Source: Chloroflexota bacterium (GTDB taxonomy: Bacteria; Chloroflexota; Limnocylindria; P2-11E). From it: 64,000 nucleotides of DNA. The stretch lies in contig JBBPIQ010000001.1 in NCBI GenBank assembly GCA_038040345.1, forward strand, positions 645,927 through 709,926, read 5' to 3'. Below the pieces are notes generated by a model that searched no databases, was not told the DNA's origin, and saw only the letters and a list, made by a program, of their open reading frames with translations. Of the stretch, positions 5,814 through 36,219 are shown piece by piece (positions within the stretch are counted from its first letter, which is position 1; each line of letters starts with the position of its first letter). Both the position numbers and the translations under genes were made by a program.

Positions 5814-6190
5814 AAACGCAGTGACTCCGAGCCTACTGTCGAGCGGTGCTAGATATCTGGTTCGTCGCCGGCATCGCGCTCGGCACCATCGTCACAGGCT
5901 TCTGCGCGATCGGCTCTTTCGATCGCGGTTCCGACAGCGTCCAGCGCCGGTCATGGAACCGCGAGCACGCCGCGCGCAAGCGCGCGCTCCTCGCCTCTCG
6001 CCCGACGATCCGCGCGACCGCTCAGCACACGCCTCCGGGAGCCATCCCCAAGGCGAGCTGACGCCCTTCGCAAGCAAGCGGTGCGTATGAGTTAGCGGCC
6101 CAATTCCGTATGACATCAGAGGAACGAAAGTGTGACGACGCACGCGGTAGTTCCGACGACGATGGACTCGGGAAGAGAAATGGAGTCGTC

Positions 6191-6646: not shown

Positions 6647-6733
6647 CGCGTCACGCATTCAACTAGTACCGCCGTACTGCCCTGTTCGGCTAGTACCCGA
6701 TGCCTTCCCAGCGACACGCCGTTAGTCAGGCGA

Positions 6734-8188: not shown

Positions 8189-8228
8189 ACCCGTAGGCTA
8201 TCGCCCTTGACCGCCGCGGTCGGGGGAG

Positions 8229-18979: not shown

Positions 18980-19972
18980 ATGAAAATGCGACCCATGGCA
19001 CGCGGGACGCTCTTCGCGGTCGCGCCGTTCGCACTCGTCGCCGCACTCGCGATGGGTGTGGCGCTCGTAGGATTCGTCGTGAGCCCGCGTGCTCCATCCG
19101 AACCGGCCGGATTGGCGACAACGGCATCCCCGACCGAAGTCGCGATCTCGGCGACTCCCGAGGCGACGGCGTCACCGAGCTCTGCTCCATCAACCGCTGC
19201 GGCGACGATGGGTCCGAAGTCGAACGACTCGGCCGAGATGCTCCGTGTGCACAACGAGCTTCGCGCCGCGATCGGCGCGCCGGCGGTGCGCGGCGACGAC
19301 CGCGTGACGGCAGCGGCGCAGCGCCACGCGGAGTACCTCGCGCGCGCCGGCGCCATCGGGCACGACGAGACAGCGGGGCAGCCCGGGTTCACAGGCGCGT
19401 CCGTTCGCGATCGCCTGGCCGCTCAGGGCTACGCCGACGCGACAGCGAGCGAGGTGGCGGCATCGTCCGACTCCGGGACCGAGGACGTGCACTTTCTCTG
19501 GGATCTTCCGTACCACCGCCTCGGGCTCATGCATCCGCACGCGGCGATCGCGGGATGGGGCCACGCCGAGATCGGTGGCCACACCGCGACGGTCGGCGTC
19601 CTCGTGTTCGACTTCGGGGCCGCCGCACCCGAACGCGTGCGGTCGCCCGCGGCGGGCCAGCGCGTGACGGGATCGTGGGCCGGCGACGAGACCCCCGATG
19701 CGCTCCCCACGGGCGCGGCCCGCCCGGTCGGATACCCGGTGATGATCGTGTACTCGCGCGCGCCGTCCGTCGATCTGAAGAGCGCGAAGCTGACCGATGC
19801 GAGCGGACGCGACGTCGCGGTGTCGGTCGTCCCGCAGATCTACGAGCGCGACTACGCCGGCATCGTGCCGACGGCCCCTCTGGCCGCTGGCGGGCGTTAT
19901 CGCGTGCGGTTCGAGCTCACGGTCGCGGGGAGCGATGTCGTGGACGAGTGGGAGTTCGAGACCGAGCCCTAG
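18980..19972 (+). CDS. secreted CAP-domain (SCP/PR-1-like) protein
   Basis: N-terminal TM/signal segment, a Ser/Thr/Ala-rich linker, then a CAP core (MLRVHNELRAA...AAAQRHAEYLARAGAIGHDE...HRLGLMHP). Confidence 0.65.
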   Translation: MKMRPMARGTLFAVAPFALVAALAMGVALVGFVVSPRAPSEPAGLATTASPTEVAISATPEATASPSSAPSTAAATMGPKSNDSAEMLRVHNELRAAIGAPAVRGDDRVTAAAQRHAEYLARAGAIGHDETAGQPGFTGASVRDRLAAQGYADATASEVAASSDSGTEDVHFLWDLPYHRLGLMHPHAAIAGWGHAEIGGHTATVGVLVFDFGAAAPERVRSPAAGQRVTGSWAGDETPDALPTGAARPVGYPVMIVYSRAPSVDLKSAKLTDASGRDVAVSVVPQIYERDYAGIVPTAPLAAGGRYRVRFELTVAGSDVVDEWEFETEP

Positions 19973-20631
19973 CGGGTAGGGAGCGTCGCGGGACGACCGA
20001 TGTACGGCAGCTTTTCCCCGACCGCGAGGATCACGGGAACGATTCGACTCTGGAGCAGCTCGGGCCGCACCTTCTGCTCGTAGAAGCCGAGTGCGCTATC
20101 GGCCTGCGACAGCTGATCGCCAGACAGGGGCCCCTTTGCGGCCGCGCTCTCCAGGAGGGCCTGGAGCATGGTCGGACTGGCGAATACGGAGAGGGTCGGG
20201 TTCGCTTTGGCCATCGTCTGAAGCGCGACGATCTCCTGTGTGCCGATGGCCGCCTTGCCGTGCAGCGGGTCGAGCCAGGCGTCCAGGGTGAGCGTTCCCA
20301 GCAACGCGACGTAGAGGGCGACCGCCGCCGTCGCCATGCCGATGGGTATGCCGAGCACCTTGTCGATCTTCTGCAATAGACCGAAACGGTGGATCAGACC
20401 GGCAATGAACATCCCGATGCGGGCGAACAGCGTCGCGCCAAGCCCGAGCGCGATCGCGCCGGCCCCGAGCCCCACCGAACCGGACGGAACCGATCCATTG
20501 AAGGGACCGGCGAAGAGGAAGGCGATCGAGAAGAGCGCGCCACCGGCAGCCACCAGCGGTAGGACGAAGCCCTTGGAGAATCCGATGAGAGCGCCAAGGA
20601 GGATGAAGCCCACGATCGCGATGTCTGCCAC
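19969..20631 (-). CDS. CvpA-family membrane protein
   Basis: Four N-terminal transmembrane helices plus a C-terminal soluble region; this layout resembles colicin V production protein CvpA. Confidence 0.65.
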   Translation of the reverse strand: MADIAIVGFILLGALIGFSKGFVLPLVAAGGALFSIAFLFAGPFNGSVPSGSVGLGAGAIALGLGATLFARIGMFIAGLIHRFGLLQKIDKVLGIPIGMATAAVALYVALLGTLTLDAWLDPLHGKAAIGTQEIVALQTMAKANPTLSVFASPTMLQALLESAAAKGPLSGDQLSQADSALGFYEQKVRPELLQSRIVPVILAVGEKLPYIGRPATLPTR

Positions 20632-20660
20632 GGCCGGAGTTTAGGCGGCCGATTCAGCGC

Positions 20661-21587
20661 TCAGGTGCCGGATAGCTCCTTGACGACCGGTGCGAGCTCC
20701 TCAACGTGCGGCCCGCGTACGCAGAAGTAGGTGATGCCGGTCTCGCGCCGCACGCGAAGGATGTGTTCGCGTACCTGGTCGAGCGTCCCAATAGGGCGAT
20801 AGACGGACGACCCGACCACCGCCGGATCGGCCTTCGCCTTCTCGGCGAACTCGGCGATCGTCTTGTCCCGGTCATCGGTGAGCGCGACGTCGAGGAAGCA
20901 GCTCAGCTCGATCTCTTCGAAGCGTCGGCCGGCGGCCTGGCGAACGATGTCGAGCTGCCTGCGCACGCCCGCGGCCGCGACGTCGTCGGGCGCGGGCGGC
21001 CGAACTCCCGCACCGGGCGGGATGACCGCGACGATCTCGGCCTCGCGTCCGGCGAGCTCGAGTATTTGCGGACCGCCGGCCGCGATGAGGATCGGAGGCC
21101 GCGGCTGTTGCACGGTCTTTGGCCGGCACTCCGACTTCACCGTCCGGTAGTACGTCCCCTCGAAGCTCACCTCATCCTCGGTGAAGACGCGCTTCATCAG
21201 CGTCACCGCTTCGGCGAGACGCGCGACGCGGACGCGGCCCCGCTCGAACGGAATGCCCGTGCTCTGGTAATCGCGGTCGAACCAGCCCGCTCCGAGCCCG
21301 ATCTCGACGCGTCCGTTCGAGATGATGTCGAGCGTCGCGAACTCGCGCGCAAGCACGACGGGGTTGCGGAAGTCGTTGTCCAGCACGAGGTTGCCGAGGC
21401 GGAGCGTGGTCGTGACCGCTGCCGCCGCGCCGAGCGCCGGCATGTTGCTCCACGCGCCGCCCACCATGTGATCGGGCATTGAGAGCGTTGCGTAACCCAT
21501 GCCTTCGATGCGCTTCGCGCGCGCCAGCCAATCCGCACCCGTCGGCTGCCCGCCGCTCTGTGTCGAGAATCGGATCTTTCGTGTCAC
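20661..21587 (-). CDS. luciferase-like monooxygenase (LLM) class flavin/F420-dependent oxidoreductase
   Basis: TIM-barrel LLM motifs (GRVEIGLGAGW, ILIAAGGPQ). Confidence 0.75.
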   Translation of the reverse strand: MTRKIRFSTQSGGQPTGADWLARAKRIEGMGYATLSMPDHMVGGAWSNMPALGAAAAVTTTLRLGNLVLDNDFRNPVVLAREFATLDIISNGRVEIGLGAGWFDRDYQSTGIPFERGRVRVARLAEAVTLMKRVFTEDEVSFEGTYYRTVKSECRPKTVQQPRPPILIAAGGPQILELAGREAEIVAVIPPGAGVRPPAPDDVAAAGVRRQLDIVRQAAGRRFEEIELSCFLDVALTDDRDKTIAEFAEKAKADPAVVGSSVYRPIGTLDQVREHILRVRRETGITYFCVRGPHVEELAPVVKELSGT

Positions 21588-21597
21588 GACGCCGAGC

Positions 21598-22689
21598 CTA
21601 CGTTCTCATGAATTCCGCGAGGAGTCGGTGGAAATGGTGCACGCCGCCTTCGCGGGCTGGGGAGTATCGGCCGCGGTCGTAGAGGCGCGAGCGCACGCCG
21701 CGCTGGACCGACTCGACGACCGCCTCGTCCTCGCGCTCCACGCGATCGAGACCAGCGCCCGCGCCGGTCTCGCGCTTTGTCGCGTCCCACACGAACGGGA
21801 GGAACGAGACACGCGTGCGGTCGACGGCCAGGGGCGTGACGACGTTCACTGACACGCCCCACGGGTAGACGTTGAACATCGTCGTCGGGAAGAGCCAGTA
21901 GTAGTAGGCAGCGACGGCGCGCCCGCGATCGGGGTGGGACTGCGGAAGCGCGAACGCGGGCTCGCCGGGCTTCGCGATCCCGAGCTGCACGACCGAATAG
22001 CGCTCTAGCTCGACGGCGTACTCGCCGTAGTCGAGGGTCGTCGCGAGACTCGAGTGCACGTACGGGATGTGGAAGCCCTCGAGGTAGTTGTCGAGGTACA
22101 GAGCCCAGTTCGCGTTCACGAAGTAATCGCGCGCGCCGCCGGCGTCATAGACGAGCTCAGCGAACGGCAGCGTCTCGAGCCGCGTGCGCATCGGTGAGAC
22201 GAGGTCGTCGAACGGCATCGCGGGAGCGAGCGACACCATGAGGAAGCGCGTCCACGTCCCGAGCGACACCGGCGGCAAGTCGTCCGACGGCGATGGAAAG
22301 TTCGCCGTCTGCTCGAACTCGGGCATCGAGTGAAAGCGGCCGTCGAGCGTGAAGCGGCGGCCGTGGTACCGGCAGCGCAGCTGCTGCTCGTGACCCGGGC
22401 CCTCGACGACGAGCGTCCCGCGATGCGTGCACACGTTCGAAACGCAGTGGACCTGATCCGTCTGATCTCGCGTGAGCAGAAGCGGCTCGTCGAGCGCGCC
22501 GGGGAGCAGCGTGAACGGATGGACCTGGCCGGCGACCTTCACGAGGTCGTCGTGACCGGCGTAGTGCCACGTGCGCGCGAAGAGACGATCGCGCTGGAGC
22601 CGGAAGATCTCGGGATCGGAGTAGACGCGCGCTGGAAGCGTGCGCGCCACGCGGATGTCGGGGTCGATCTCGAACAGCGCATCGCCCAT
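21598..22689 (-). CDS. Rieske [2Fe-2S] non-heme-iron oxygenase alpha-subunit-like protein
   Basis: Rieske motif CSNVCTHRG...CRYHGRRF, followed by a catalytic-domain-like C-terminus. Confidence 0.8.
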   Translation of the reverse strand: MGDALFEIDPDIRVARTLPARVYSDPEIFRLQRDRLFARTWHYAGHDDLVKVAGQVHPFTLLPGALDEPLLLTRDQTDQVHCVSNVCTHRGTLVVEGPGHEQQLRCRYHGRRFTLDGRFHSMPEFEQTANFPSPSDDLPPVSLGTWTRFLMVSLAPAMPFDDLVSPMRTRLETLPFAELVYDAGGARDYFVNANWALYLDNYLEGFHIPYVHSSLATTLDYGEYAVELERYSVVQLGIAKPGEPAFALPQSHPDRGRAVAAYYYWLFPTTMFNVYPWGVSVNVVTPLAVDRTRVSFLPFVWDATKRETGAGAGLDRVEREDEAVVESVQRGVRSRLYDRGRYSPAREGGVHHFHRLLAEFMRT

Positions 22690-22700
22690 CGCGGGCGATG

Positions 22701-23951
22701 CTAGCTATTGGCTCTGGCCACCCTCGCGAGCGTCGACACGAGCTCGAGCTGATCGCGAAGATCGCGAGTGATCAGGAAGTTCTCGCGCACGTGCTCGCGT
22801 CCCGCGGCGGCCATGCGCTTACGGAGCGCGGGATCGCGCAAGAGGTCGAGGCACCGTGCGGCGCACTCCTGGGGGCTCGTCACGAGATACCCGGAGACGC
22901 CGTCCTGGATCTGGATGACGATGCCGCCGACCTTGCCCGCGACGACCGGTATTCCCTTCCAGAGCGCTTCGGCGACGACGAGGCCGAATCCTTCGCGCAG
23001 CGACTTCTGGATCACGATCTCCGACGCGCGCTGGAACGCGTTCACCTCGCGGTCCTTGACGCCGTCGAGATTCGTGAAGAGGAAGACATCGGGGTCCCCG
23101 CCCGCGTGCTTCTTCGTACGGTCGAAGTACTCCTGGCCCTCGGGATCGTCGTCGGCGAGCGAGCCGATCATCACGAGCTGGACGGCGGGCACCTCTTTCT
23201 TGACGAGGCGGTACGCGTCGATGACGCCGAGAGGGTCCTTCCATGGATCGAAGCGCGAGACCTGCAGAAGGATCGGCCGGGCCGGATCCACGCGGAACTT
23301 CCGGACGACCTCACGCGCTTCGTCGATCGGCATGTCGCGGTTCTTCTCGGAGAACGGGTCGATCGTCGGCGCCTGGATGAGCACCTTCTGCTTGAGGTCA
23401 GGTCGCACGAACCCCGGCATCGTCCAGATCGACGCGTCGTGCTCTTCCACGAACGGCTTGAGGAAAGACCACACCGGTTGATGCGCGGCCGTGAGATCGA
23501 TGTGGCAGCGCCATACCCATCCGGCCCGGTCGGGATCCTTTGCGAAGTGGCGGAGCGCCACCGCTTGCGGGTCGTGCGCGAGGACGACGTCGGCGTCGGT
23601 GAGCTGCGCTGCGTTCTCTCGCGCGACGTCGAGGAAGAGCTTCTTCTCCGTGTCCGAGAGGTCGAGCTTCATTCCCTGGAGCGCGTTATGGATCTTCTTG
23701 GTGATGTCGTAGAACGCGGCCGGCGCGTCGAGGACGGCCCAGTGCGCGTCCACGCCCGCATCCCTGAGGAGCGGGACGAGGTTTTGTAAAATCTCCGCGA
23801 CTCCACCGCCGTATGCGGTCGCGTTGATGTGGAGCATGCTGCGGCCCTTCGCGGCCTTCGCGAGCGTTCGCAGCTGCTCGTACCGCTCGTCGCCGATGAC
23901 CTTGGCGTAGTCGGCAAGGCGCTTGTTGGCGGTAATCGGTACCGCGTGCAC
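22701..23951 (-). CDS. GT4 glycosyltransferase, TreT-like (NDP-glucose-dependent trehalose synthase family)
   Basis: N-terminus HINATAYGGGVAEILQNLVPLLRDAGVDAHWAV, and C-terminal GT-B motifs EGFGLVVAEALWKGIPVVAGKVGG. These match trehalose glycosyltransferring synthase-type GT4 enzymes. Confidence 0.7.
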   Translation of the reverse strand: MHAVPITANKRLADYAKVIGDERYEQLRTLAKAAKGRSMLHINATAYGGGVAEILQNLVPLLRDAGVDAHWAVLDAPAAFYDITKKIHNALQGMKLDLSDTEKKLFLDVARENAAQLTDADVVLAHDPQAVALRHFAKDPDRAGWVWRCHIDLTAAHQPVWSFLKPFVEEHDASIWTMPGFVRPDLKQKVLIQAPTIDPFSEKNRDMPIDEAREVVRKFRVDPARPILLQVSRFDPWKDPLGVIDAYRLVKKEVPAVQLVMIGSLADDDPEGQEYFDRTKKHAGGDPDVFLFTNLDGVKDREVNAFQRASEIVIQKSLREGFGLVVAEALWKGIPVVAGKVGGIVIQIQDGVSGYLVTSPQECAARCLDLLRDPALRKRMAAAGREHVRENFLITRDLRDQLELVSTLARVARANS

Positions 23952-24827
23952 CTATTTGATCGAGCCGGCGAGGAGGCCCTGCACGAAGTAGCGCTGCAGG
24001 CTGAAGAACACGATCAGCGGGACGATCATCAAGAGGAAGGCGCCCGCCGCGAGGAGGTGCCACTCGGTGCCGTACTGGCTGAGCAGGTTCTGGATCGCTC
24101 GGGTCATCGGGTACTTCTCCGAGTCCTGCACGAAGACGAGGGCCATGAGCAGATCGTTCCAGACCCACAGGAACTGGAAGATTCCGTAGGCGGCGATGGC
24201 TGGGACCGACACCGGCACCACGATCTGGCTGAAGACTCGGAAATCCGAGGCGCCATCGATGCGCGCGGCTTCGATCATGTCCGGTGGCAACGTGATGAAG
24301 AAGTTGCGCAGCAGGAAAATGCCGAAGGGCAACGCGAAGGCGGTGTGCGCGAGCCACACGGCGACATAGCCCCGTGTGAGCTGGAGGTCGGGCACCAGGT
24401 TTGTCGCCGTCGTGAGCAACGGGATGAAGGCGACCTGCACCGGCACCAGCAGGAACGCGATCACGATGAGGAAGAGGGTGTCACGGAATGGGAACCGGAC
24501 CCACGAGAAGGCGAATGCGGCGAGAGCGCAGATGGCGATGGGAAGCACGGTCGACGGCACCGCGATGAAGACGGTGTTCACGAAGGCTTGGAGCATCCCC
24601 TGCGCTTCGAGCACCTGTCTGTAGTTGTCGAGCGTGAGGTGCAAGTTGAAGATGTCCCACCACCCGGTCGCCTGGATGTCGGACCGCGGCCGGAACGAAG
24701 TCACCAGGAGTCCGAGCGTCGGGACCAGCCAGAAGACCCCGACGAGCCCGAGGACGACGTGGATCACCGATCGGTTGAGAGCCGCGACCGCGCGCCCGGC
24801 GGGTGTCCGCGGGCGCGAGCCGGCCAT
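23952..24827 (-). CDS. carbohydrate ABC transporter permease (MalG-like)
   Basis: EAA loop AARIDGASDFRVFSQIVVPVS. ATG 24825-24827 (minus) was checked in the sequence. The N-terminal half of the 549-aa track ORF is antisense junk. Confidence 0.85.
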   Translation of the reverse strand: MAGSRPRTPAGRAVAALNRSVIHVVLGLVGVFWLVPTLGLLVTSFRPRSDIQATGWWDIFNLHLTLDNYRQVLEAQGMLQAFVNTVFIAVPSTVLPIAICALAAFAFSWVRFPFRDTLFLIVIAFLLVPVQVAFIPLLTTATNLVPDLQLTRGYVAVWLAHTAFALPFGIFLLRNFFITLPPDMIEAARIDGASDFRVFSQIVVPVSVPAIAAYGIFQFLWVWNDLLMALVFVQDSEKYPMTRAIQNLLSQYGTEWHLLAAGAFLLMIVPLIVFFSLQRYFVQGLLAGSIK

Positions 24828-24844
24828 GGCTTCGGCGAGGACGC

Positions 24845-25822
24845 TCACGTTACGTTTGCCGTTCGGAAGCGCCGAACGTTGTAGATCATGATCGGGATCA
24901 GCACGACGAGCATGACGACCGCGACCGCCGAGCCGTAGCCATATTGCCCGGCCTGGAACGCCTGCTGGTACATCGTGAACGCGATCACCCGGCTGGCCTT
25001 GCCGGGTCCGCCCGCAGTCATCACGTAGATGAGGTCGAAAAGTTTGATGACGTTGACGACGAGCGTGACGCCCAGCACCGAGATGGGGAGGCTGACCATC
25101 GGCAGGATCATCCGGAAGAAGATCTGCCGCTCGTTCGCCCCTTCGACCCGGGCTGACTCGATGACCTCCGCCGGGATGCTCTTCACGGCCGCCGAGAGGA
25201 TGACGGTCGCGAATCCGACCGATCCCCAGATGCCCACGGCGATGAGCGCGAAGTTCACGAGATTCTCGTCGCCCAGCCAGGCGACCGGCGACACGCCGAA
25301 GTTCCCGAGTACCGCGTTGAGGAGGCCGATGTTCGCGTCGGGCGAATACACGAACTTCCAGATCACAGCGAGGGCCGTCGCCGAGATCGCCATCGGGATG
25401 AAGACGATCGCTTTGATGACCGACTCGTAGCGGACCCGCGCCGCCACGACCGCGATGATCAGCCCCAGAAAGATGACGATGCTCGTGTAGAAGACGATCC
25501 AGAGGACGTTGTTCCAGAGCGCTCCTGACGGCGGGAACGTCGACAAGTTGATGAAGTCCGGATCGGTGAACAGGCGGACGTAGTTGTCCAGACCGACCCA
25601 CTCCGAGAAGACACCACCACGCCCGCGGTTGAAGCTCAGCAGGATCGTGTAGAGGGACGGGTACAAGAGGAAGACGACGAGGAGGATCGCGGCGGGGAGA
25701 AGGAACAGGACGGCGGCTACATAGTTCGGTCCCTCAGGTGTGCGCGCACGACGCACCGCCGTGCGGTCTCGAGCCGGTACCGCGGTGCGCACGAGATCCA
25801 GTGGTGTTGGCGCGATCCCCAT
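24845..25822 (-). CDS. carbohydrate ABC transporter permease (MalF-like)
   Basis: EAA loop SARVEGANERQIFFRMILP, six transmembrane helices. Confidence 0.85.
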   Translation of the reverse strand: MGIAPTPLDLVRTAVPARDRTAVRRARTPEGPNYVAAVLFLLPAAILLVVFLLYPSLYTILLSFNRGRGGVFSEWVGLDNYVRLFTDPDFINLSTFPPSGALWNNVLWIVFYTSIVIFLGLIIAVVAARVRYESVIKAIVFIPMAISATALAVIWKFVYSPDANIGLLNAVLGNFGVSPVAWLGDENLVNFALIAVGIWGSVGFATVILSAAVKSIPAEVIESARVEGANERQIFFRMILPMVSLPISVLGVTLVVNVIKLFDLIYVMTAGGPGKASRVIAFTMYQQAFQAGQYGYGSAVAVVMLVVLIPIMIYNVRRFRTANVT

Positions 25823-25901
25823 CTATCTCCGTCCGTAGTGGAGCGGATGGGCCATGTCTTGAGGCCCACCCGCTCCGTTGATTTCTAGGTCACGCGCCTG
25901 G

Positions 25902-27197
25902 TCATTTCTCCGCTTTCCACTTTGCCTGCATTCGCGTTTCGAAACCCGCCCAGTCGACGGTTTTGCCGCGGAGCGCGTCCTGTAGCGCGGCGCCCATGTC
26001 GTCGCCGCCGCCAGATGGAAGCAGGTCGGAACCGTCGAAGCGGACCGCGGAGGCATTCGCTACCTGAGCCGCCTCGCGCTTGGCGAGATCGTTCGGATAC
26101 GCGGTGGCTGGAACGGACTTGACGGGCGAGATGATCGCGCCGGTTCCGGCCCAGACCCCGCCGGCCTCAGCCGTTGTCATGTACTGGAGGAATTCCTTGA
26201 CGCCGGGCTTGGTCGTGAAGGCGGCGATCACGTCGCCTCCGATGGTCACCGACTTGTTGCTGTTGATCGACGGGAAGTCGAACCAGTCGATCGTGTCGCC
26301 GACCTTCAACGCGGTGTTGGTCTGCCCGGTGGCGATGCCGCCCACGAATCCGCCTTCGTAGTAGACGACCGCCTGGGGGTTCGTGCTGAACACCTGGCCG
26401 ATCCCGTCCGTGAAGGTGCGTCCCAGGGCGGCTGTGACGCCGCCTGCGACGTACTGGTCCGAGAGGGCTTGCTTCATCGTGTCGATGGCCGTCGCGACGG
26501 ACGCGTCGGTCCACGGAAGCGTGCCGCTGAAGAGCTTGTCGTATTTGTCCGGGCCGGCCTGCCGGACGTAGATGCTCTCGAACCAGTCGGTGAGCGTCCA
26601 CGAGTCACCCGCACCGAGTCCGAGCGGCGTCTGGCCTTTGGCCTTGATGTCGGCGAGGAGCTTCGTGAAACCGGCGAAGTCCGTCGGCGCCGTGACGCCG
26701 AATGTCTTGAACTTATCCGGTCGGAACCACACCGTGCTCTTGCTGTTGAACTTCACCATGATCGCGTACTGGGTCCCGTCGACCTGACCGATCTCAAGAA
26801 TTCCCGGTGGGTAGTTCGACTTGAGGGCGTTCACGTCGACGCCGAGGTCGGCCACCTTCTTGAGCGACCCTTGACGCGCGAACTGCCGGAGGAAGCCAAT
26901 CCCCGGGATGATGGCGACGTCAGGCGGATTGCCGCCCGAGATGCGCGTCTGAAGGGTCGTTGCGTAGTCCGCGCGGATCGATTCGTATTTCGCGGTCACG
27001 CCCGTCTTCGTCTTGAAGGCGTCGAGCACTTTCTGGAAGTTGTCCTGCTCGCTGGCGCCCCAGAGCGACATGACGTTGATCGTGCTGCCGGATGCCCCTG
27101 TCCCGGGCGCGTTCCCGCCCGACGAACAGGCGGTCGCCACCAGTAGGGCGACAAAGGCAAGGATGGCTAGAGGTCTCATAGATCGCGCCATTGACAC
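25902..27197 (-). CDS. carbohydrate ABC transporter substrate-binding lipoprotein (maltose/trehalose-type family 1 SBP)
   Basis: Lipobox LLVATAC. The fold resembles MalE-like SBPs. Confidence 0.85.
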   Translation of the reverse strand: MSMARSMRPLAILAFVALLVATACSSGGNAPGTGASGSTINVMSLWGASEQDNFQKVLDAFKTKTGVTAKYESIRADYATTLQTRISGGNPPDVAIIPGIGFLRQFARQGSLKKVADLGVDVNALKSNYPPGILEIGQVDGTQYAIMVKFNSKSTVWFRPDKFKTFGVTAPTDFAGFTKLLADIKAKGQTPLGLGAGDSWTLTDWFESIYVRQAGPDKYDKLFSGTLPWTDASVATAIDTMKQALSDQYVAGGVTAALGRTFTDGIGQVFSTNPQAVVYYEGGFVGGIATGQTNTALKVGDTIDWFDFPSINSNKSVTIGGDVIAAFTTKPGVKEFLQYMTTAEAGGVWAGTGAIISPVKSVPATAYPNDLAKREAAQVANASAVRFDGSDLLPSGGGDDMGAALQDALRGKTVDWAGFETRMQAKWKAEK

Positions 27198-27265
27198 ACC
27201 TCCCCGTGCGGTTGGGTAACAGTATCGCTCCGCGTGGGACCGCGTTTTCGGCGACAGTACGCGCG

Positions 27266-28888
27266 ATGGGGACCTTCGTCCTCGCCCTCCATTCGCATCT
27301 CCCGTATTGCCGCGGCGCGGGCCGGTGGCCGCACGGTGAGGAGTGGATCCACGAGGCGGTGCTCGGCACGTATCTGCCGTTGCTTGTGCTCCTCCACGAT
27401 CTTCGCGACGCGAAGGTCGCGTATCGCATAGTCATCGGGCTCACGCCGATCCTCATCGAGCAGCTCGCCGACCGTGACATCAACGTCCGCACGCTCGAGT
27501 ACATCGACGATCAGGTCCTGCGCGCCGAGAAGGACGTTCGGCGCTTCAGCGACGCACCGGACCAGGGTCGTGCCGAGCTCGCCAATTTCTATGTCGGTTC
27601 CTATCGTCGCTTGCGCGAGGCGTACCGAACGCGCTTCGGTCGCGACCTCGTCGGCGCGTTCGCGGATCTCGCGAAGACGGGTCACGTCGAGATCCTCACC
27701 TCAGCTGCGACGCACGGTTATTTGCCGCTCCTTGACCGGCCATCGGTCGAGGCGCAGCTAGGAATCGGCCGTCGTTCATCGCGCCGACTCACCAGCCTTG
27801 ATCCCACCGGCATCTGGTTGCCGGAGTGCGCGTACACACCTGGCCTAGAGAAGGCACTCGCCGCGCATGGCATCACGCACTTCTTCACCGACGCCGCGCT
27901 TCTGCCCGGACACGCGCGTCCCGCCGGCGATGTCCGGCGCCGTCGCGGGCAGAGCGAGCTCGGTCGTTGGGCGCCCCACGAAGAACGAGTCCAGGTCATG
28001 GAGGCGTCAACAACATCGAGTGACGTCGATCTCCTGCGTCCCTATTACGTGGGCGATTCCGATGTCGCCGCGATCGCGCGGCACGATCGCGTCTCGAGTC
28101 AGGTGTGGTCGGCGGTCACCGGTTATCCCGGCGATGCGCATTACCGCGAGTTCCATCGCAAGGACACGATGAGCGGGCTGCGTTATTGGCGCGTGACCTC
28201 GGTCCACACGGGACTCGGCGAAAAAGAGGTGTACTCGCCAAACCGGGCGGCCGAGCGCGTGCGCGATCACGCGCGTCACTTCGTGGACGTCGTCCGGAAC
28301 GAGATGGCGGGTCGGAGCGCGGACGGCCGCGACCCGCTGCTCGCGGTGACATTCGACAGCGAGCTCTTCGGTCACTGGTGGTTCGAGGGCGTGGATTGGC
28401 TCGGACTCGTCCTGCGCGAGCTCACCGAGTCCGACATTCGCGTTGCCACAGCGGCTGAGTACCTCGACCGCGAGCCGCCGAAGGAGCGCATCGCGCTCTC
28501 GGAAGGATCCTGGGGAAAGAACAACGATCACTCGACTTGGCTGAACGAGGGAACCGCGTGGATGTGGGACGAGCTCGGCCGTCTCGCGCGCGAGATGGAC
28601 GGTCTTCGCGCTTCACCCCCTCGGGACGATCCCTTTCGCGACCGCGCCGCGCGCCAGGCGGTGCGCGAGCTCCTGCTCGCGCAATCGAGCGACTGGCCGT
28701 TCCTCGTCACGACGGGGCAGGCCGCCGACTACGCGGTCGAGCGCTTCCGCTCGCACGTTCATCGCTTCCGCCGCGCAGTCGCGCTGGCGCACTCCGGCGA
28801 TTCCACCGAAGACGAGACCGAGCTGCGAAGCCTCGAGCATGCGGACAACCCGTTCCCGGATGCCTCGCTGAAGGACTTCGAGACCTAA
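27266..28888 (+). CDS. GH57-family 1,4-alpha-glucan branching enzyme-like protein
   Basis: GH57 N-terminal signature FVLALHSHLPY. It has the length and motifs of GH57 branching enzymes (Thermus/Mycobacterium type). ATG 27266 was checked. Confidence 0.75.
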   Translation: MGTFVLALHSHLPYCRGAGRWPHGEEWIHEAVLGTYLPLLVLLHDLRDAKVAYRIVIGLTPILIEQLADRDINVRTLEYIDDQVLRAEKDVRRFSDAPDQGRAELANFYVGSYRRLREAYRTRFGRDLVGAFADLAKTGHVEILTSAATHGYLPLLDRPSVEAQLGIGRRSSRRLTSLDPTGIWLPECAYTPGLEKALAAHGITHFFTDAALLPGHARPAGDVRRRRGQSELGRWAPHEERVQVMEASTTSSDVDLLRPYYVGDSDVAAIARHDRVSSQVWSAVTGYPGDAHYREFHRKDTMSGLRYWRVTSVHTGLGEKEVYSPNRAAERVRDHARHFVDVVRNEMAGRSADGRDPLLAVTFDSELFGHWWFEGVDWLGLVLRELTESDIRVATAAEYLDREPPKERIALSEGSWGKNNDHSTWLNEGTAWMWDELGRLAREMDGLRASPPRDDPFRDRAARQAVRELLLAQSSDWPFLVTTGQAADYAVERFRSHVHRFRRAVALAHSGDSTEDETELRSLEHADNPFPDASLKDFET

Positions 28889-28935
28889 GAACCTCCGCCT
28901 GCCAGCGACGTCGGGTGAATGGCGGCGAGTGGGGG

Positions 28936-28959
28936 CCGGCGACCCTACGTGGTCGCCGG
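28936..28959. terminator. bidirectional terminator hairpin between the convergent GH57 and L25 genes
   Basis: Sequence ccggcgacc-ctacgt-ggtcgccgg: a 9-bp perfect stem. Confidence 0.45.
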
Positions 28960-29008
28960 AGGGACCCGCGAGACCGCCGGTCGCCCGGCGGCGCTGGCCA
29001 GCAACGCG

Positions 29009-29797
29009 TTAGCCCTTCTTCGGCGCTCCACCAGCAGGCGCCTTCGGTGCGGCGCCCTTCGCAGCGTCCGCAGCTGCGGGCTTCGCGCCGGCTGCGGCAG
29101 GCTTCGCGCCCGCGGCTGCAGGCTTCGCGCCCTCGGCGCCAGCGGCCGGTGCGGCGGCTTCGCCCTCTTCACCTGCCGCGGCGGCCTCGCCCTCGACGGG
29201 TGCGGCAACCTCGGCTGGCGTCGGCTCCGCTTCGACCTTCACCGGGACCGCCTTGACCACAAGCTCGTCTGGGTCGTTCTCGACCTTGATCAAGGTCGCG
29301 TCGACCACGAGGTCGCGGACGAAGATCGCGTCGTCGATCTCCAGCAGTCCTGAGAGGTCGACCTCGATCGCGCGGGGCATGTCCTGCGGGAATGCTTCGA
29401 CGGTGACCTCGCTCCGCGCATGGAGCAGTACGGCGCCTAGCGTCTTTACGGCGGGTGATTCGTTCACGAAGTGGAGCGGCACGTCCGCGTGCGTCTTCTC
29501 GGTGAGCGAAACGCGGGCGAAGTCCACGTGGAGCATCTTGCCGCTGACGGGGTCGCGGCTCACGTCGTAGATCAGGGCCGGCACGTCGCCGCCATCGAGC
29601 CCGGTGAGCGAGAGAAGGGTCGTGTTGCCCCAACGGCGATAGGAGAGCTCGAAGGCGTGCTGATCCGTCTCGACCGGCGTCGAATCGGCGTGCCCGCCGG
29701 AGACAACACCCGGGAGCAGACCCTGGCGGCGAAGGGTGTTCACCTTCTTACCGAGGACCTGGCGCGGACGGACGCTGAGCTTTTGTGCTTCGGCCAC
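29009..29797 (-). CDS. rplY: 50S ribosomal protein L25 / general stress protein Ctc, with a long Ala/Lys/Pro/Glu-rich C-terminal extension
   Basis: L25/Ctc domain (RQGLLPGVV...HADVPLH...). The roughly 70-aa C-terminal tail contains GAKPAAA tandem repeats. Confidence 0.85.
   Translation of the reverse strand: MAEAQKLSVRPRQVLGKKVNTLRRQGLLPGVVSGGHADSTPVETDQHAFELSYRRWGNTTLLSLTGLDGGDVPALIYDVSRDPVSGKMLHVDFARVSLTEKTHADVPLHFVNESPAVKTLGAVLLHARSEVTVEAFPQDMPRAIEVDLSGLLEIDDAIFVRDLVVDATLIKVENDPDELVVKAVPVKVEAEPTPAEVAAPVEGEAAAAGEEGEAAAPAAGAEGAKPAAAGAKPAAAGAKPAAADAAKGAAPKAPAGGAPKKG
29078..29140 (-). repeat. about 21-bp tandem repeat (3 copies) encoding the GAKPAAA repeats of the L25 tail
   Basis: Three successive gcttcgcgcc-N10 units are seen on the plus strand. 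Confidence 0.5.
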
Positions 29798-29842
29798 GAT
29801 GGAGCGCTCCCCTGAAAGTTCTTGCGGAGACCTAATTATGGG

Positions 29843-30535
29843 TCAAGGCGGGGTTGGGAAATCGAGGACGACCCGGAAGGGTCCGGCGAGCTCGGTCACC
29901 TTCGGGCACGCGAGGTGGTCGAGGCCGACGCCCCAGAGCAGCACTCGCTCGAAGTCCTCGACGATCTTGACCTCTTTGATGAGCGGCGTCGTCGGCTTTA
30001 TGTCGTTGCTCCCGGTGTAGCTCGGCGTGCCATTCGGGTTTTGGGTCGAGGCGTTCTGGAACCGCGTCCCGAAGAGCGCGTTGCCGACGATCGTGACCGG
30101 CTGCCCGCTCGGCCCGGAGAGCGAGGTCGCGGTCTCGACGGTGTAGGCCGGCATGCCGAAAGGCCCGGGCGCGGTGCTCTGACCGAACTCGAAGACGAGG
30201 CGATCGAAGCCGGGCTGGTGCGCCACCCGCACCGCGACCAGCTGGGCCTGGTTGCTCGCGTTCCCGCCGGTCGTCCGAGGGCACGCCGCAGCGGGCGTGG
30301 ATCCCGGGCTTGCGGTTGCGGTCGGGACGGTCGTCGGAGAGCTGGTCGGTCGAGCAGTCGCCGTCGCGATCGGCGGGACCGAGGCCGTCGCCGTGGGGCT
30401 CGCTGACCGGGAAGCGGACGCAGTCGGGGTCGCCGTCGGCGACGAGGCCACGTCCGGTTGGGGCCCACACGCGCTCACGACCACTATGCCGAGGGCCAGG
30501 GCCAGCGCCCCGTAGATAATCAAGCGTCCAAACAT
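29843..30535 (-). CDS. hypothetical lipoprotein with a Ser/Thr/Pro/Ala-rich linker
   Basis: Internal start MFGRL was checked (cat at 30533-30535). Lipobox VVVSAC. The C-terminal domain of about 130 aa is of unknown function. Confidence 0.5.
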   Translation of the reverse strand: MFGRLIIYGALALALGIVVVSACGPQPDVASSPTATPTASASRSASPTATASVPPIATATARPTSSPTTVPTATASPGSTPAAACPRTTGGNASNQAQLVAVRVAHQPGFDRLVFEFGQSTAPGPFGMPAYTVETATSLSGPSGQPVTIVGNALFGTRFQNASTQNPNGTPSYTGSNDIKPTTPLIKEVKIVEDFERVLLWGVGLDHLACPKVTELAGPFRVVLDFPTPP

Positions 30536-30646
30536 CTGACCCAAAGCCTGCGGGACTAACGCAACGCTGTCGAGTTCGTCGACAAGCAGCCGAGCGTTCT
30601 GTACGAAGTCCGTCCGGGACACCATTTTTGGTAAAATGCATCTCGA

Positions 30647-32812
30647 GTGGCCGATCGCCTGCGATTGGCGCTGGTGTTTCACCAGCACCAGCCGGCCGGG
30701 AATTTCCCGTCAGTCTTCCAGGATGTGACCGAGCGGGCGTACGCCCCCCTCGTGGCCACCCTCTATCGGCACCCCGAAGTAAAGGCCAGCCTTCACTTCT
30801 CGGGGCCGCTCCTCGATTGGCTGGAAGCCAACCGCCCAGACGTCATCGGGGACCTCTCCGACCTGGTCCGAAGGGGTCAGATAGAGCTCCTCTCCGGGGG
30901 CTATTACGAGCCGGTTCTGGTCGGTGTGCCTCGGCGCGACGGCGTCGCCCAGATTCGGGCGCTTTCCGATCGGGTTCACGCGATCTTCGGACAGCGCCCG
31001 TTGGGCGCATGGCTGACCGAGCGGGTGTGGGAGCCCCACCTCCCGTCTCTCCTCGCCGAAGCGGGAGTCGCGTACACGGTCCTCGATGACGAGCACTTCC
31101 TCCAGGCGGGACTCCGCCCGCAGGAGCTCGGCGAGTCGTACGTCACGGAAGACCAGGGCCTTCCGGTCATCGTCTTCCCCGGAAGCGTGAAGCTCCGCTA
31201 CCTCATCCCGTTCCGCGACGTGAGCGCAACGATGAAGGAGCTCCGCGCCCGAGCCGACGAGGGCGCGCGTCTCGTCGTCTATGCGGATGACGGCGAGAAG
31301 TTCGGCGGCTGGCCGGGCACCTACCAGCGCGTGCACAAGGACGGCTGGCTCGAGCAGTTCTTCTCGGCGATCGCGCAGGCCGACTTCATCCAGACGACGA
31401 CGCTCGAAGACGCCTGGGTCTTCCAGAAGCCCGCGCGGCGTATCTACATCCCATCCGGGTCGTATCCCGAGATGGCTGAGTGGGCACTTGAGCCGAACGC
31501 TGCGAAGCGGTACCAGCAGGCGCGGAACAAGCTCGGCGACGAGTCTTCAGCGCTCGTTGCCGCTCCGCTCTGGCGGAACTTCCTCGCGAAATACCCTGAA
31601 TCCAACGCCCTCCACAAGCGGATGCTCATCGTCAGCGAGGAGCTCGCGCGCCGCAGCATCCTCGACGCATCGGCCGAGGTCCGTCAGGCGCAGCAGAACC
31701 TGTGGCGCGCACAGGGCAACGACGTGTACTGGCATGGCGTCTTCGGCGGCATCTACTTCCCGCACCTTCGTGCCGACGCGTACGCCTCCCTGCTGAAGGC
31801 AGAACGGATCCTGTCGGAGCGGCGCACCGCGGCCGGCGAGCAGCGCGACTACGACGTCGACGGCTACGACGAATACATCTTCCGTGGGAACGCGGGTGCC
31901 GTGTTCGTGCACGTCCAGGGCGGCGCCGTCATCGAGTGGGACATCTACGCGTCGGCGACCAACCTCGTCGACACCCTCGCGCGCCGGCCGGAGGCCGAGC
32001 ACGAAGCGCTGCGTCGCGCCGAAAAACTCGGCAAGGTCCTCGTCGGCAAGGCAGCAGAAAAAGAGTCGAAGTCCATCCACGAGGCCGTGCGCGCACGGGA
32101 GCGCGGCCTCTCGAAGCTTCTCGAATACGACGTCGCGCGCCGCGCGTTCTTCCAGGACAGCTTCCGCGTCGGAAAGGCCGAGCCGGTCGTGCTGCACGCG
32201 TACTACTACCAGCTCACCCCGCAGCGCGAGGCGCGCACCGTGAGCCTCATCCTCGAGCCGCCGCCGCGCTCTCTCGCGAGCGTTCCCGGCCTCGGGATCC
32301 GCAAGGACATCCGCATCGCCGACGAAGGGCTCGCCGCTGGCGTCCGCTACCGCCTTCGCAACGACGGCGAGGAAGCGATAAGTCTCCAGTTCACCAGCAC
32401 GTCGAACATCGGTCTGCTTTCCGAGCAGAACCCGGCCGACGTGATCACGGTCGGCACGCGGAAGACGACCGCGGGAAAGCCGATCGACGCGCGGCATGTG
32501 TCAGAAATCGCCGTTCACTCGGAATCGAAGCACTTTGACATCGCAATTGCTATCGATCCGCCGTGCGAGGTGACGACACGGCCGATCTACTCGATCACCA
32601 ACTCCGAGCAGGGCTTCGAACGCGTCTATCAGCAGTTGGAGATCGCCTCGATGTGGAACGTCACCATCGAGCCCGACGCCCATGTCGACCTCGAGGTGCG
32701 CGCGACCGCGGTCGGCCAGATGGTCGAGCCGGACGCCGTTCGTCCGACGGCTCGGCGCCGCAAGGCCGCGGCTGGCGCGAGCGCGGAAACGGCGAGGGCT
32801 CCGCGGAGGTAA
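30647..32812 (+). CDS. GH57-family alpha-glucan-active enzyme (4-alpha-glucanotransferase / amylopullulanase-like)
   Basis: Classic GH57 start LALVFHQHQP. The catalytic region and 721-aa size fit GH57 glucanotransferase-like enzymes. Confidence 0.75.
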   Translation: MADRLRLALVFHQHQPAGNFPSVFQDVTERAYAPLVATLYRHPEVKASLHFSGPLLDWLEANRPDVIGDLSDLVRRGQIELLSGGYYEPVLVGVPRRDGVAQIRALSDRVHAIFGQRPLGAWLTERVWEPHLPSLLAEAGVAYTVLDDEHFLQAGLRPQELGESYVTEDQGLPVIVFPGSVKLRYLIPFRDVSATMKELRARADEGARLVVYADDGEKFGGWPGTYQRVHKDGWLEQFFSAIAQADFIQTTTLEDAWVFQKPARRIYIPSGSYPEMAEWALEPNAAKRYQQARNKLGDESSALVAAPLWRNFLAKYPESNALHKRMLIVSEELARRSILDASAEVRQAQQNLWRAQGNDVYWHGVFGGIYFPHLRADAYASLLKAERILSERRTAAGEQRDYDVDGYDEYIFRGNAGAVFVHVQGGAVIEWDIYASATNLVDTLARRPEAEHEALRRAEKLGKVLVGKAAEKESKSIHEAVRARERGLSKLLEYDVARRAFFQDSFRVGKAEPVVLHAYYYQLTPQREARTVSLILEPPPRSLASVPGLGIRKDIRIADEGLAAGVRYRLRNDGEEAISLQFTSTSNIGLLSEQNPADVITVGTRKTTAGKPIDARHVSEIAVHSESKHFDIAIAIDPPCEVTTRPIYSITNSEQGFERVYQQLEIASMWNVTIEPDAHVDLEVRATAVGQMVEPDAVRPTARRRKAAAGASAETARAPRR

Positions 32813-34091
32813 GTCTGGGCGTGACCGGCGTACGCGCGGCAGGCGACCTTCCATAGCGACGACGCTCGGACGGCGCGACGCCGTCCTCTACCTCATCGCG
32901 GCGGGTCTGGGGAGCTTCGGCCTCGGCGTCGCGCAGTTCTACCTGAACTTCCTATACCGCTCACTCGGCTTCGACGCGTTCGCGATCGGACTCCTGGCCG
33001 GGGCGGAAGCTCTCGGCGTCGTCGCCGGAGCGATCCCGGCGGCGATCTTCACACGCGGGCGATCGCGCCGTGCGGCGATCCTTCTCGGGGGCACGCTCAC
33101 CGGGATCGGCATCTTCGGGATCCTCATCTTCAACGCGCTTGGCGCGGTCTTCCTCTCGGCGATGCTCGTCGGCTTCGGGGGGATCATCGCGAGCTCCTCT
33201 GGCGCCGCGCTCCTTGCGGATGCGACCGACGCCGCGCGGCGCGCGACGCGTTTCGGCCAGCAGGTCGCGCTCGGCACGACGGCCGCGTTCCTTTCGAGCG
33301 TGATCGCGGGCGCGCTCGCGACGCCGGTGGCGTCGCTACTCGGCGCTCGACCGGACGACGCGCTCGTGTTGCGAGCTCTCGTCGGGAGCGGCGGCATCAT
33401 CGCGGCCGCGTCGATCGTTCCCATCCTCGCGATCCGTGCTGTGCCTGTCGCCCAGCACACCCTCGCGGCGCCGACGCGCAACGACCTCGTGCGGCGCTTT
33501 CTCGCCATCGAGATCCTCTTCGGTTTCGGCGCGGGCAGCTTCCTCCCGTTCGTGAACCTCTTCTTCGCCGACCGCTACGGAGTGCCGTTCTCAGCCCTCG
33601 GCCTCGTCCTCGGCGTCCTCGCGGTCGCCGGCAGCATCGGCGCGCTGCTCCACGGCCGCTTTGTCGCGGCGCGCCTCGGGGCGATCCCGTCGATCGTTCT
33701 CGTGGAGGCACTGTCCTTGCCTTTCGCGCTCGTCGCCGCGTTCACCGGCGCACTACCGATCGCCGTCGGCGCGCTCGCGACGCGCCATTTCCTGATGTTC
33801 GGCGCGAGCGGGACCGTGAACGCCTTCCAGCTCTCGTCCTTCACGCCGGCGGAGCGCGCCGGGGCGAACGCCGTCTTCGCGCTCGCCTGGAGCGCCGCGA
33901 ACGCGGTCGGCGCGATCCTCTCGGGCGCGATACGCGCGCGGCTCGGGCCCGAGGGGTTCACGGCCAACCTCGTCACGCTCGTCGTCGCGTACGGGCTCGC
34001 GGCGGTCCTCACCTGGCGACTCTTCGCGACGCATAGGCCCAGTGGCGATGTTGGCGTGCGCACCCTCGCTGTCCCAGACTCGCGCGGGTGA
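32682..34091 (+). CDS. MFS transporter (start uncertain)
   Basis: Twelve transmembrane helices. The only canonical start is ATG 32682, which overlaps the GH57 gene by 131 nt and adds an Arg-rich 60-aa N-terminus. No ATG/GTG/TTG lies between the GH57 stop (32812) and the first transmembrane helix; ATA (32853) and CTG (32898) are the only alternatives I found. Confidence 0.7.
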   Translation: MSTSRCARPRSARWSSRTPFVRRLGAARPRLARARKRRGLRGGKSGRDRRTRGRRPSIATTLGRRDAVLYLIAAGLGSFGLGVAQFYLNFLYRSLGFDAFAIGLLAGAEALGVVAGAIPAAIFTRGRSRRAAILLGGTLTGIGIFGILIFNALGAVFLSAMLVGFGGIIASSSGAALLADATDAARRATRFGQQVALGTTAAFLSSVIAGALATPVASLLGARPDDALVLRALVGSGGIIAAASIVPILAIRAVPVAQHTLAAPTRNDLVRRFLAIEILFGFGAGSFLPFVNLFFADRYGVPFSALGLVLGVLAVAGSIGALLHGRFVAARLGAIPSIVLVEALSLPFALVAAFTGALPIAVGALATRHFLMFGASGTVNAFQLSSFTPAERAGANAVFALAWSAANAVGAILSGAIRARLGPEGFTANLVTLVVAYGLAAVLTWRLFATHRPSGDVGVRTLAVPDSRG

Positions 34092-35809: not shown

Positions 35810-36219
35810 TCCGTTTCCGCCTCGATCCGAGCTCAGGCGTGCCGACCTATTTACAGCTCGTCCATCAGGTCAAGCACGCGGTGCAGTACGCGATGCTGAA
35901 ACCCGGCGATCGGCTACCCACCGCCCGCGAGGTCGTCGAAGACCTGGCCATAAACCCGAACACCGTCCTCAAGGCGTACCGCGAGCTCGAACGTGAAGGA
36001 TTCGTGTACAGCCGGCCGGGCGCGGGAACCTTTGTCGCGGACGATGCGCCAGCTCCGCTCGCGCGCACGGTCCATCAACCGCTGCGCCGGTCGCTGGATC
36101 GTTTGCTCGCGAGCGCTCTTGCGGCGGGCCTCGATCGCGAGAGCGTCGTCGCCCTGATGACCCTCGCACTGAACGACGCATTCCCCGAGAAGGAGGCTGC
36201 TCATGGACGTCGTGCTTGA
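35794..36219 (+). CDS. GntR-family transcriptional regulator, YtrA subfamily
   Basis: Winged HTH (VPTYLQLVHQVKHAVQYAMLKPGDRLPTAREVVEDLAINPNTVLKAYRELEREGF) with a short C-terminal region. Followed by ABC ATPase and ABC-2 permease genes. GTG starts at 35794 or 35800. Confidence 0.7.
   Translation: MKVATIRFRLDPSSGVPTYLQLVHQVKHAVQYAMLKPGDRLPTAREVVEDLAINPNTVLKAYRELEREGFVYSRPGAGTFVADDAPAPLARTVHQPLRRSLDRLLASALAAGLDRESVVALMTLALNDAFPEKEAAHGRRA

Follow-up and report, generated by a model that had tools for sequence, protein, structure and literature searches.

Within a 64-kb stretch of the genome of a Chloroflexota bacterium of the class Limnocylindria (contig JBBPIQ010000001.1; the whole stretch is called the window below, and genes are numbered in its positions), we identified an operon of four minus-strand genes that encode a substrate-binding protein (SBP), two permeases and a trehalose synthase of the TreT type, in this order. 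The four genes stay together in related genomes, and no gene for a transporter ATPase accompanies them. In other words, the locus is a TreT-coupled, ATPase-less importer operon of the CUT1 type in a mesophilic soil member of Chloroflexota, with a layout that has already been described in Thermococcus and Thermotoga. An earlier note on this DNA had proposed a trehalose/alpha-glucan island that also includes two neighbouring GH57 enzymes and serves cryoprotection. Our analysis points to the four-gene operon, and not to such an island, as the conserved functional unit.

The importer and its TreT

The two permease genes overlap by 4 nt, and the TAG stop codon of permease 2 abuts the GTG start codon of TreT with a gap of 0 nt. 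Because of these junctions we consider the four genes (Table 1) to form a single operon, in which TreT is predicted to be translationally coupled to permease 2. Translation of the SBP likely begins at ATG 27191, with GGAGG 7 nt before it; the open reading frame (ORF) itself reaches GTG 27197. A 549-aa ORF (23952-25601) was rejected as an over-extension of permease 2, since the 298-aa form agrees with the genes called in relatives. All genes that the earlier note had named are present on the strands it gave, with strong family matches and a GC content at third codon positions of 0.79-0.88, in a window of ~67% GC (0.63-0.69 both within the region and window-wide). Antisense ORFs of 225-363 aa lie opposite the operon genes on the plus strand (22698-23789, 23829-24884 and 26469-27146); they are taken as artefacts of the high GC content and not as genes.

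Table 1. Positions of the operon, its neighbours and the ice-binding-like gene in the window
Feature	Position	Strand	Family match or remark
SBP lipoprotein, CUT1-type, first operon gene	25902-27191	-	PF01547 SBP_bac_1, 84 bits
Permease 1, MalF/UgpA/GlcT-like	24845-25822	-	PF00528, 62 bits
Permease 2, MalG/UgpE/GlcU-like, 298 aa	23952-24848	-	PF00528
TreT, glycosyltransferase family 4 (GT4)	22701-23951	-	PF21269, 171 bits; Glycos_transf_1
Rieske-type oxygenase alpha subunit	21598-22689	-	Rieske and Ring_hydroxyl_A; 11 nt downstream of TreT
Divergent intergenic region, SBP/GH57 branching-enzyme gene	27192-27265		74 bp
GH57 branching-enzyme homologue	27266-28888	+	GH57 and BE_C; ATG, then HSHLPY motif
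Ribosomal protein L25/Ctc	29009-29797		Between both GH57 genes
AMIN-like gene	29843-30688		Between L25 and the second GH57 gene
GH57 4-alpha-glucanotransferase/alpha-amylase homologue	30647-32812	+	GH57, AmyA-A_glucT_m and AmyA-gluTrfs_C
DUF3494 ice-binding-like gene	3838-4836	+	PF11999, 189 bits

The GT4 protein matches the TreT of P. horikoshii (PDB 2x6q) with 420 bits over residues 9-408 against 13-414 (47.9% identity) and that of T. uzoniensis (PDB 6zj4) with 359 bits, whereas the next-best GT4 in PDB, a BshA-like enzyme, reaches 47 bits. The TreT N-domain (PF21269) spans residues 41-182 over the full profile, and PF00534 (Glycos_transf_1) is matched with 96 bits. The full-length match to the NCBIfam TreT model NF041139 (441 bits) lies under its 775-bit equivalog cut-off, as expected for a protein from another phylum given that the model is built on Thermococcales; here, as for the two branching-enzyme models discussed below, we read sub-cut-off matches as family membership and not as equivalog calls. 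The consensus residue is kept at all 77 of the 77 columns that are at least 97% conserved among 164 TreT sequences. The residues typical of the family are present as well, namely the GGGVxE loop, HDPQ, WRCHID, R233/K238 and E320-x7-E328, with putative roles that follow GT4 enzymes in general. The protein is a bona fide member of the TreT family, as the earlier note had suggested; by PF21269, by the PDB scores and by the conserved positions it groups with TreT and not with the other glycosyltransferases that the note had named as the alternative.

TreT proved to be a large family, with more than 7,995 homologues at E<=1e-30, mostly metagenomic; a search of sequences clustered at 50% identity gave 813 clusters at this threshold. 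Matches in the genome collection come mainly from Solirubrobacterales, Thermoleophilia, Acidimicrobiia, Chloroflexota and Bathyarchaeia metagenome-assembled genomes (MAGs), that is, largely from uncultured Actinomycetota and Chloroflexota. Homologues 79-100% identical to the TreT or SBP of the window are labelled by NCBI as Chloroflexi/Chloroflexota bacterium or Candidatus Limnocylindria bacterium. Members of this class (Ellin6529-type Chloroflexota) seem to be widespread in soil, for which the number of metagenome matches is only indirect support. The earlier note had regarded the enzyme as thermophile-type; in view of the thousands of soil homologues this was not borne out, and TreT is not a marker of thermophily. 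A neighbor-joining tree of the 164 TreT sequences, which has no support values and is used only descriptively, places the clade of the window beside the archaeal clade. In the same unsupported tree, a second, divergent TreT (55% identity) from a Limnocylindria MAG (locus L028, 4682-5947), with no importer beside it, is sister to the clade of the window, which hints at two TreT paralogues in Limnocylindria.

The SBP has an N-terminal signal or hydrophobic segment followed by an invariant Cys22, the lipoprotein anchor. The permeases have ~6 transmembrane segments each and carry EAA loops at residue 222 (permease 1) and residue 193 (permease 2). The set as a whole, an SBP_bac_1 lipoprotein with two BPD_transp_1 permeases that have an EAA loop, is that of a CUT1 importer. 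The SBP is a CUT1 sugar-binding protein, and the earlier note was right to take it for a sugar SBP. An initial AlphaFold2 prediction for it, which drew on 16 near-identical sequences, was unusable, with a predicted local distance difference test score (pLDDT) of 49.8. The model from 46 sequences reached a pLDDT of 85.6 and a predicted TM-score of 0.84, and its top structural matches in Foldseek were sugar SBPs.

Neither the operon nor the rest of the 64-kb window encodes a MalK/MsiK-type ATPase; the only two ATP-binding cassette (ABC) ATPases in the window are of exporter types, DrrA-like (36203-37072) and MacB/LolD-like (40822-41562). Since both permeases keep the ATPase-docking EAA loops, an ATPase partner is needed, and it is a fair inference, already drawn in the earlier note, that the importer is powered by a MalK/MsiK-type ATPase whose gene lies in another part of the genome. 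That type I sugar importers can share one 'multitask' ATPase is well documented (PMC7658222), and the importers served by MsiK in Streptomyces and MsmX in Bacillus likewise consist of an SBP and two permeases only, the EAA loops being found in the permeases of the window too (PMC7658222, PMC5730181). The lack of an ATPase gene, which the note had pointed out, turned out to be the rule: all bacterial homologous operons that we examined, including L030, L089, four operons with homologues of the L089 SBP, and L169-L172, are without one (L-numbers denote TreT- or SBP-bearing loci from the genome collection). An Opp/Dpp-type importer in the window (SBP_bac_5 13906-15486, permeases 12890-13831 and 12025-12939, minus strand) is also without an ATPase. 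Importers of this type usually encode two ATPases in the operon; here, ApbA and an M20 peptidase (9631-12020) follow instead, and L003 has the same layout. A branched-chain amino-acid system in L169 and L171 has its own ATPase.

Conservation of the four genes

Close relatives (L001-L006, L085-L087 and L173) are syntenic with the window from the second GH57 gene through the AMIN-like, L25 and branching-enzyme genes to the SBP, both permeases, TreT and the Rieske gene. This synteny runs 15 kb further into unrelated genes (CAP, GAF and the Opp-type importer), which is the pattern expected under vertical inheritance. In L169-L172, where TreT is 79-80% identical, only the SBP-permease-permease-TreT unit is kept, with overlapping junctions and wholly different flanks, and these loci have no GH57, L25 or Rieske neighbours. 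Thus, across Limnocylindria relatives with TreT identities of 79-95%, the four-gene unit is retained, and only this core moves as a block. The genome contig most similar to the window, L005 (DASPWX010000075.1), is filed as 'Candidatus Bathyarchaeia archaeon'; its TreT is 95% identical to that of the window, DNA identity is 85-87% over ~10 kb, and its L25 is bacterial, so that the contig is probably mis-binned.

Beyond Limnocylindria, the SBP, the two permeases and TreT occur on one strand in Thermoflexus (L030), Anaerolineales (L079), a Bacillota MAG (L010) and L088, L089 and L092, and divergent versions with a MalK-sized ATPase are found in Bathyarchaeia and Thermofilaceae. For a count we used 69 TreT loci outside the clade of the window that are flanked by 4 kb or more on either side; L030, L079, L092 and the archaeal L017 and L108 are examples from shorter contigs and stand outside it. 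A CUT1 permease lies within 5 kb in 6/69 loci and directly upstream on the same strand in 3/69, against a chance rate for such an upstream permease that we roughly estimate at ~0.25%. The TreT-linked SBPs fall into two subfamilies that are ~25% identical to each other, so that the linkage between TreT and importer must either be old or have originated repeatedly.

These data bear on the possibility that there is no coupling at all, and that a stand-alone biosynthetic TreT has come by chance to lie behind an unrelated sugar importer. In its favour, a CUT1 permease is missing from the 5 kb around TreT in 63 of the 69 loci, and these genomes are rich in CUT1 importers (three within 21 kb of L089, for example). 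However, the stop/start junction between permease 2 and TreT leaves no nucleotide between them, the four genes remain together although the genes around them differ, several phyla share the gene order with SBPs from two subfamilies, and TreT-importer pairing has experimental precedents (PMC3750489, PMC4158304). Since the core is kept amid unrelated flanks and is met again in other phyla, chance does not account for the arrangement, and we regard a fortuitous neighbourhood as very improbable.

The earlier note had likened the arrangement to the archaeal trehalose/maltose cluster. In T. litoralis and P. furiosus this cluster reads malE-malF-malG-treT-trmB-malK (PMC4158304), and the likeness holds for the order of SBP, two permeases and TreT on one strand and for TreT itself, which is homologous (48% identity to P. 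horikoshii). A GH57 4-alpha-glucanotransferase is likewise known from T. litoralis, and in PDB it is the structure that the protein encoded at 30647-32812 matches best. The likeness fails for the transporter. Its SBP is not an orthologue of the trehalose/maltose-binding protein (TMBP, PDB 1eu8), which was matched at E<1e-3 neither by the single sequence nor by a 46-sequence profile and was not among the 50 Foldseek matches listed for the SBP model; TreT-linked SBPs of group A reach only 33 bits against TMBP. The permeases are nearer to GlcTU and UgpAE than to MalFG: permease 1 scores 94 bits with UgpA, 90 with GlcT and 48 with MalF, and permease 2 scores 147 bits with GlcU, 124 with UgpE and 82 with MalG. 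Moreover, trmB and malK are missing, the Rieske and oxidoreductase genes following TreT instead, no mobile 16-kb element carries the cluster, and the genome is that of a high-GC bacterium from soil instead of a hyperthermophilic archaeon.

Flanking genes and the proposed island

Two GH57 enzymes do lie beside the importer and TreT, as the earlier note had reported, and both genes are intact. The branching-enzyme homologue matches the T. kodakarensis (3n8t, 387 bits) and Thermus (1ufa, 339 bits) structures and keeps the catalytic motifs WLPECAY (Glu) and D-ELFGHWWFEG (Asp); its NCBIfam scores are below cut-off (436 bits against 1000 for NF041133, and 427 bits for NF041566). The second GH57 protein (721 aa) matches the T. 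litoralis 4-alpha-glucanotransferase (1k1w) with 380 bits and keeps TERVW (Glu123) and DDGEKFG (Asp214). They thus share full-length homology, domain sets and the catalytic Glu and Asp with characterised GH57 branching enzymes (T. kodakarensis TK1436 and T. thermophilus TTHA1902) and the T. litoralis enzyme, and differ from them in scoring under the equivalog cut-offs and in the C-terminal part of the second protein, which is longer than in 1k1w and aligns well only to residue 507. Their activities are predicted from sequence, and both probably act on glycogen or maltodextrin. The description of the two genes as simply flanking the importer has to be qualified, because L25 and the AMIN-like gene separate them.

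It could be argued that importer, TreT and both GH57 enzymes form an integrated thermophile- or archaeal-type trehalose/alpha-glucan island, which acts in cryoprotection together with an ice-binding protein. The intact GH57 genes would fit this proposal, and so would the branching-enzyme gene diverging from the SBP at 74 bp, a gene order from GH57 to TreT that is kept in L001-L006 and L086, the use that glycogen synthase could make of NDP (nucleoside diphosphate)-glucose produced by TreT, the presence of a DUF3494 gene, and the position of the TreT clade next to the archaeal one in the unsupported tree. However, the operon of L169-L172 has no GH57 gene in its vicinity, and no other TreT locus among ~160 has GH57 neighbours; the GH57 genes appear to be tied to the operon by synteny within the sublineage only. 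L25 and the AMIN-like gene interrupt the set, and its synteny continues into unrelated genes, as for vertical inheritance. We saw no signs of a genomic island either: there is no deviant GC content, no integrase and no tRNA, and an Rfam scan of the whole window was empty at gathering thresholds. Homologues of both TreT and the GH57 enzymes are, in addition, abundant in soil metagenomes. What links the locus to cryoprotection is solely the DUF3494 gene, which lies 18 kb from the operon with unrelated genes in between and scores 72 bits against the 400-bit cut-off of the NCBIfam ice-binding equivalog IBP_CFB; no result of ours supports the link. Taken as a whole, the island seems very improbable to us.

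The close spacing between the branching-enzyme and SBP genes argues against the island as well, for it is a derived state: relatives have ~1.1-1.3 kb between the two starts (according to blastn breakpoints), with another gene in it, compared with 74 bp in the window. The extra gene is mechanosensitive-channel-like (PF05552) in L003, L005, L006, L085 and L086 and a DUF4760 gene in L001 and L002; no copy of the channel gene was found anywhere in the window. The same five relatives that carry the channel gene share a promoter-like site, TTGACC-17-TA(G/C)GCT, a short way before the SBP gene, together with a ~105-nt leader that is rich in GC (L003 ~5160-5345, L005 ~6400-6570). The leader is predicted to fold into nested hairpins (RNAalifold -42 kcal/mol, 33 pairs, 4 of them with compensatory changes, from only 5 sequences), and it had no credible match in Rfam. 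In the window, the operon promoter must lie within the 74 bp; a scan of 21000-33500 for sigma-70 promoters and terminators gave nothing above shuffled expectation and no consensus match in this region.

Downstream of TreT, the Rieske gene is followed after 10 nt by an F420-dependent oxidoreductase of the luciferase-like monooxygenase (LLM) type (TIGR03621, 268 bits) and then by an ORF of 220 aa without any family match (19969-22689 in total, minus strand). These three genes may prolong the operon transcript. The Rieske gene is present after TreT in L005, L086, L087 and L173, truncated in L003 and absent from L169-L172. We considered betaine monooxygenase as an identity for it, which would have given a link to compatible solutes, and rejected this: the best NCBIfam match, GbcA, scores 86 bits against a cut-off of 670. 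Several other ORFs were discarded, namely 28919-29353 (plus strand), a shadow ORF opposite L25 with no family match and no gene called there in relatives, and 29832-30641 (minus) and 6700-8196 (plus), which are in wrong frames, the coding frames being 29843-30688 and 6734-8188. The DUF3494 protein, which has a Pro/Thr/Ala-rich stalk, and a nearby 178-aa protein (6110-6646, plus strand) both end in LPSTST, a hydrophobic helix and a basic tail, which looks like a sortase-type cell-surface sorting signal.

Possible function of the operon

With moderate confidence, we propose that the operon serves to import trehalose, or an alpha-glucoside related to it, and that TreT converts this sugar reversibly into NDP-glucose and glucose. 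The membrane-anchored SBP lipoprotein would bind the sugar, most likely trehalose and possibly other alpha-glucosides, outside the cell, and the two permeases would move it across the membrane, driven by an ATPase supplied in trans and shared with other sugar importers. In the cytoplasm, TreT would act on the imported sugar in the direction trehalose + NDP -> NDP-glucose + glucose. External trehalose could in this way be salvaged or catabolised with one glucosyl bond conserved as a sugar nucleotide, and the NDP-glucose might be used for glycogen synthesis or in glycolysis. TreT could also run in reverse and make trehalose when the cell is under stress.

Supporting this proposal are both published systems and relatives of the operon. 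Besides the T. litoralis and P. furiosus cluster described above (PMC4158304), there is that of T. maritima, which grows on trehalose; this sugar induces its treTR and is sensed by TreR, and its treEFG importer has no ATPase gene (PMC3553997, PMC3750489). The pairing of a bacterial TreT with a CUT1 importer without its own ATPase is thus the same as in the window, and TreT is there treated as the enzyme of trehalose utilisation. The layouts differ in part: treTR and treEFG are separate loci under a ROK repressor, whereas TreT of the window lies inside the importer operon with no adjacent regulator. AglEFGAK of S. meliloti, which transports trehalose, maltose and sucrose (PMC3518184), similarly has an intracellular alpha-glucoside-processing enzyme encoded after the permeases, although that operon includes the ATPase AglK, and AglA is a GH13 hydrolase, whereas TreT is a GT4 transferase. 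The name given by the Joint Genome Institute (JGI) to close homologues of the SBP and to L089-type SBPs is 'alpha-glucoside transport system substrate-binding protein' (AglE group), a label that is assigned automatically.

Among the relatives, L030 and L089 have a LacI-family repressor at the head of the operon. L089 (5409-18483) is of Anaerolineae type, and the genes after its TreT encode a GT4 resembling sucrose-phosphate synthase (SPS), a PfkB kinase, another LacI and a HAD-GH65 fusion. We also examined four SBPs homologous to that of L089 (61-71% identical to it and ~33% to the SBP of the window). Each is encoded in a LacI-SBP-permease-permease operon that lacks both an ATPase and TreT; in two of these operons, L167 and L168 from other Chloroflexota, a PRK-family kinase and a ~1,060-aa HAD-GH65 fusion stand in the place of TreT. 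TreT and GH65 phosphorylases both interconvert an alpha-glucosyl disaccharide with glucose and activated glucose. The exchange suggests that the two are alternative intracellular partners of one importer family. Because of these LacI/GH65 relatives and the published TreT-importer systems, alpha-glucoside import with TreT as the processing enzyme is the most parsimonious explanation.

Nonetheless, a number of observations weigh against it. The nearest solved SBPs, which are AcbH, BxlE, the Thermus glucose/galactose-binding protein and NagB1/2, score 76-99 bits by sequence and have TM-scores of ~0.7-0.8 by structure. The ligands of such neighbours are glucose or galactose (Thermus and P. putida glucose-binding proteins, AcbH) or the beta-disaccharides chitobiose and xylobiose, and none of them binds trehalose; with identities of 17-22% and ligands this mixed, however, the specificity of the SBP is not readable from them. 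Searches of PDB by sequence and by profile likewise found no match of the SBP to LpqY or other trehalose binders. The permeases score best with GlcTU, the Sulfolobus glucose transporter. The window has no LacI-type regulator and lacks the conserved promoter and leader of its closest relatives, which are missing in L001 as well. The SPS-like GT4 and the PfkB kinase beside TreT in L089 look biosynthetic, and L003 alone has a GH1 glycosidase gene, pointing to a beta-glucosidase, between permease 2 and TreT (8757-9980). Finally, the TreT of Thermoproteus tenax is reported to be unidirectional and synthetic (cited in PMC7688234).

Most of these features would be explained if import were coupled to trehalose synthesis, i.e. 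if imported glucose, or glucose derived from a beta-glucoside, were joined with NDP-glucose to yield trehalose, a compatible solute that would protect the cell when it dries, freezes or meets salt. The glucose/galactose-, chitobiose- and xylobiose-binding neighbours of the SBP, the GlcU/GlcT-like permeases, the GH1 gene, the genes beside TreT in L089 and the synthetic T. tenax enzyme all fit this alternative, as does the mechanosensitive-channel-like gene that immediately precedes the operon in five relatives. Furthermore, the acceptor of TreT is free glucose, and an ABC importer delivers glucose unphosphorylated (EC 2.4.1.245, PMC11046441). On the other hand, the low identity to glucose binders tells nothing about specificity, the SBP clade of the operon also holds disaccharide binders, and GH1 occurs in one relative only. 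Both TreT-importer pairs that were studied experimentally bind or respond to trehalose (PMC4158304, PMC3553997, PMC3750489), LacI control with GH65/beta-phosphoglucomutase partners, as seen in relatives, is typical of catabolism, and a glucose importer dedicated to TreT has no known precedent. We therefore view import-coupled synthesis as possible but doubtful. A more specific and still less likely version would have TreT hard-wired in Limnocylindria to an importer with an SBP of the glucose branch, so that glucose is condensed with NDP-glucose to trehalose at once, the upstream channel of the relatives acting as a release valve. If true, this would be an uptake-coupled route to a desiccation and freeze protectant, with a logic undescribed for any TreT system.

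Under the preferred explanation, alpha-glucoside import with processing by TreT, the locus adds an example to a characterised layout and opens no new question. It does correct the notion that TreT and GH57 enzymes are markers of thermophily. Trehalose is the main sugar protectant against drying, and Limnocylindria have, to our knowledge, few or no cultured members. A full-text search found no paper that treats Limnocylindria together with trehalose. The conserved, coupled importer-TreT operon offers a testable handle on how these bacteria acquire or recycle trehalose.

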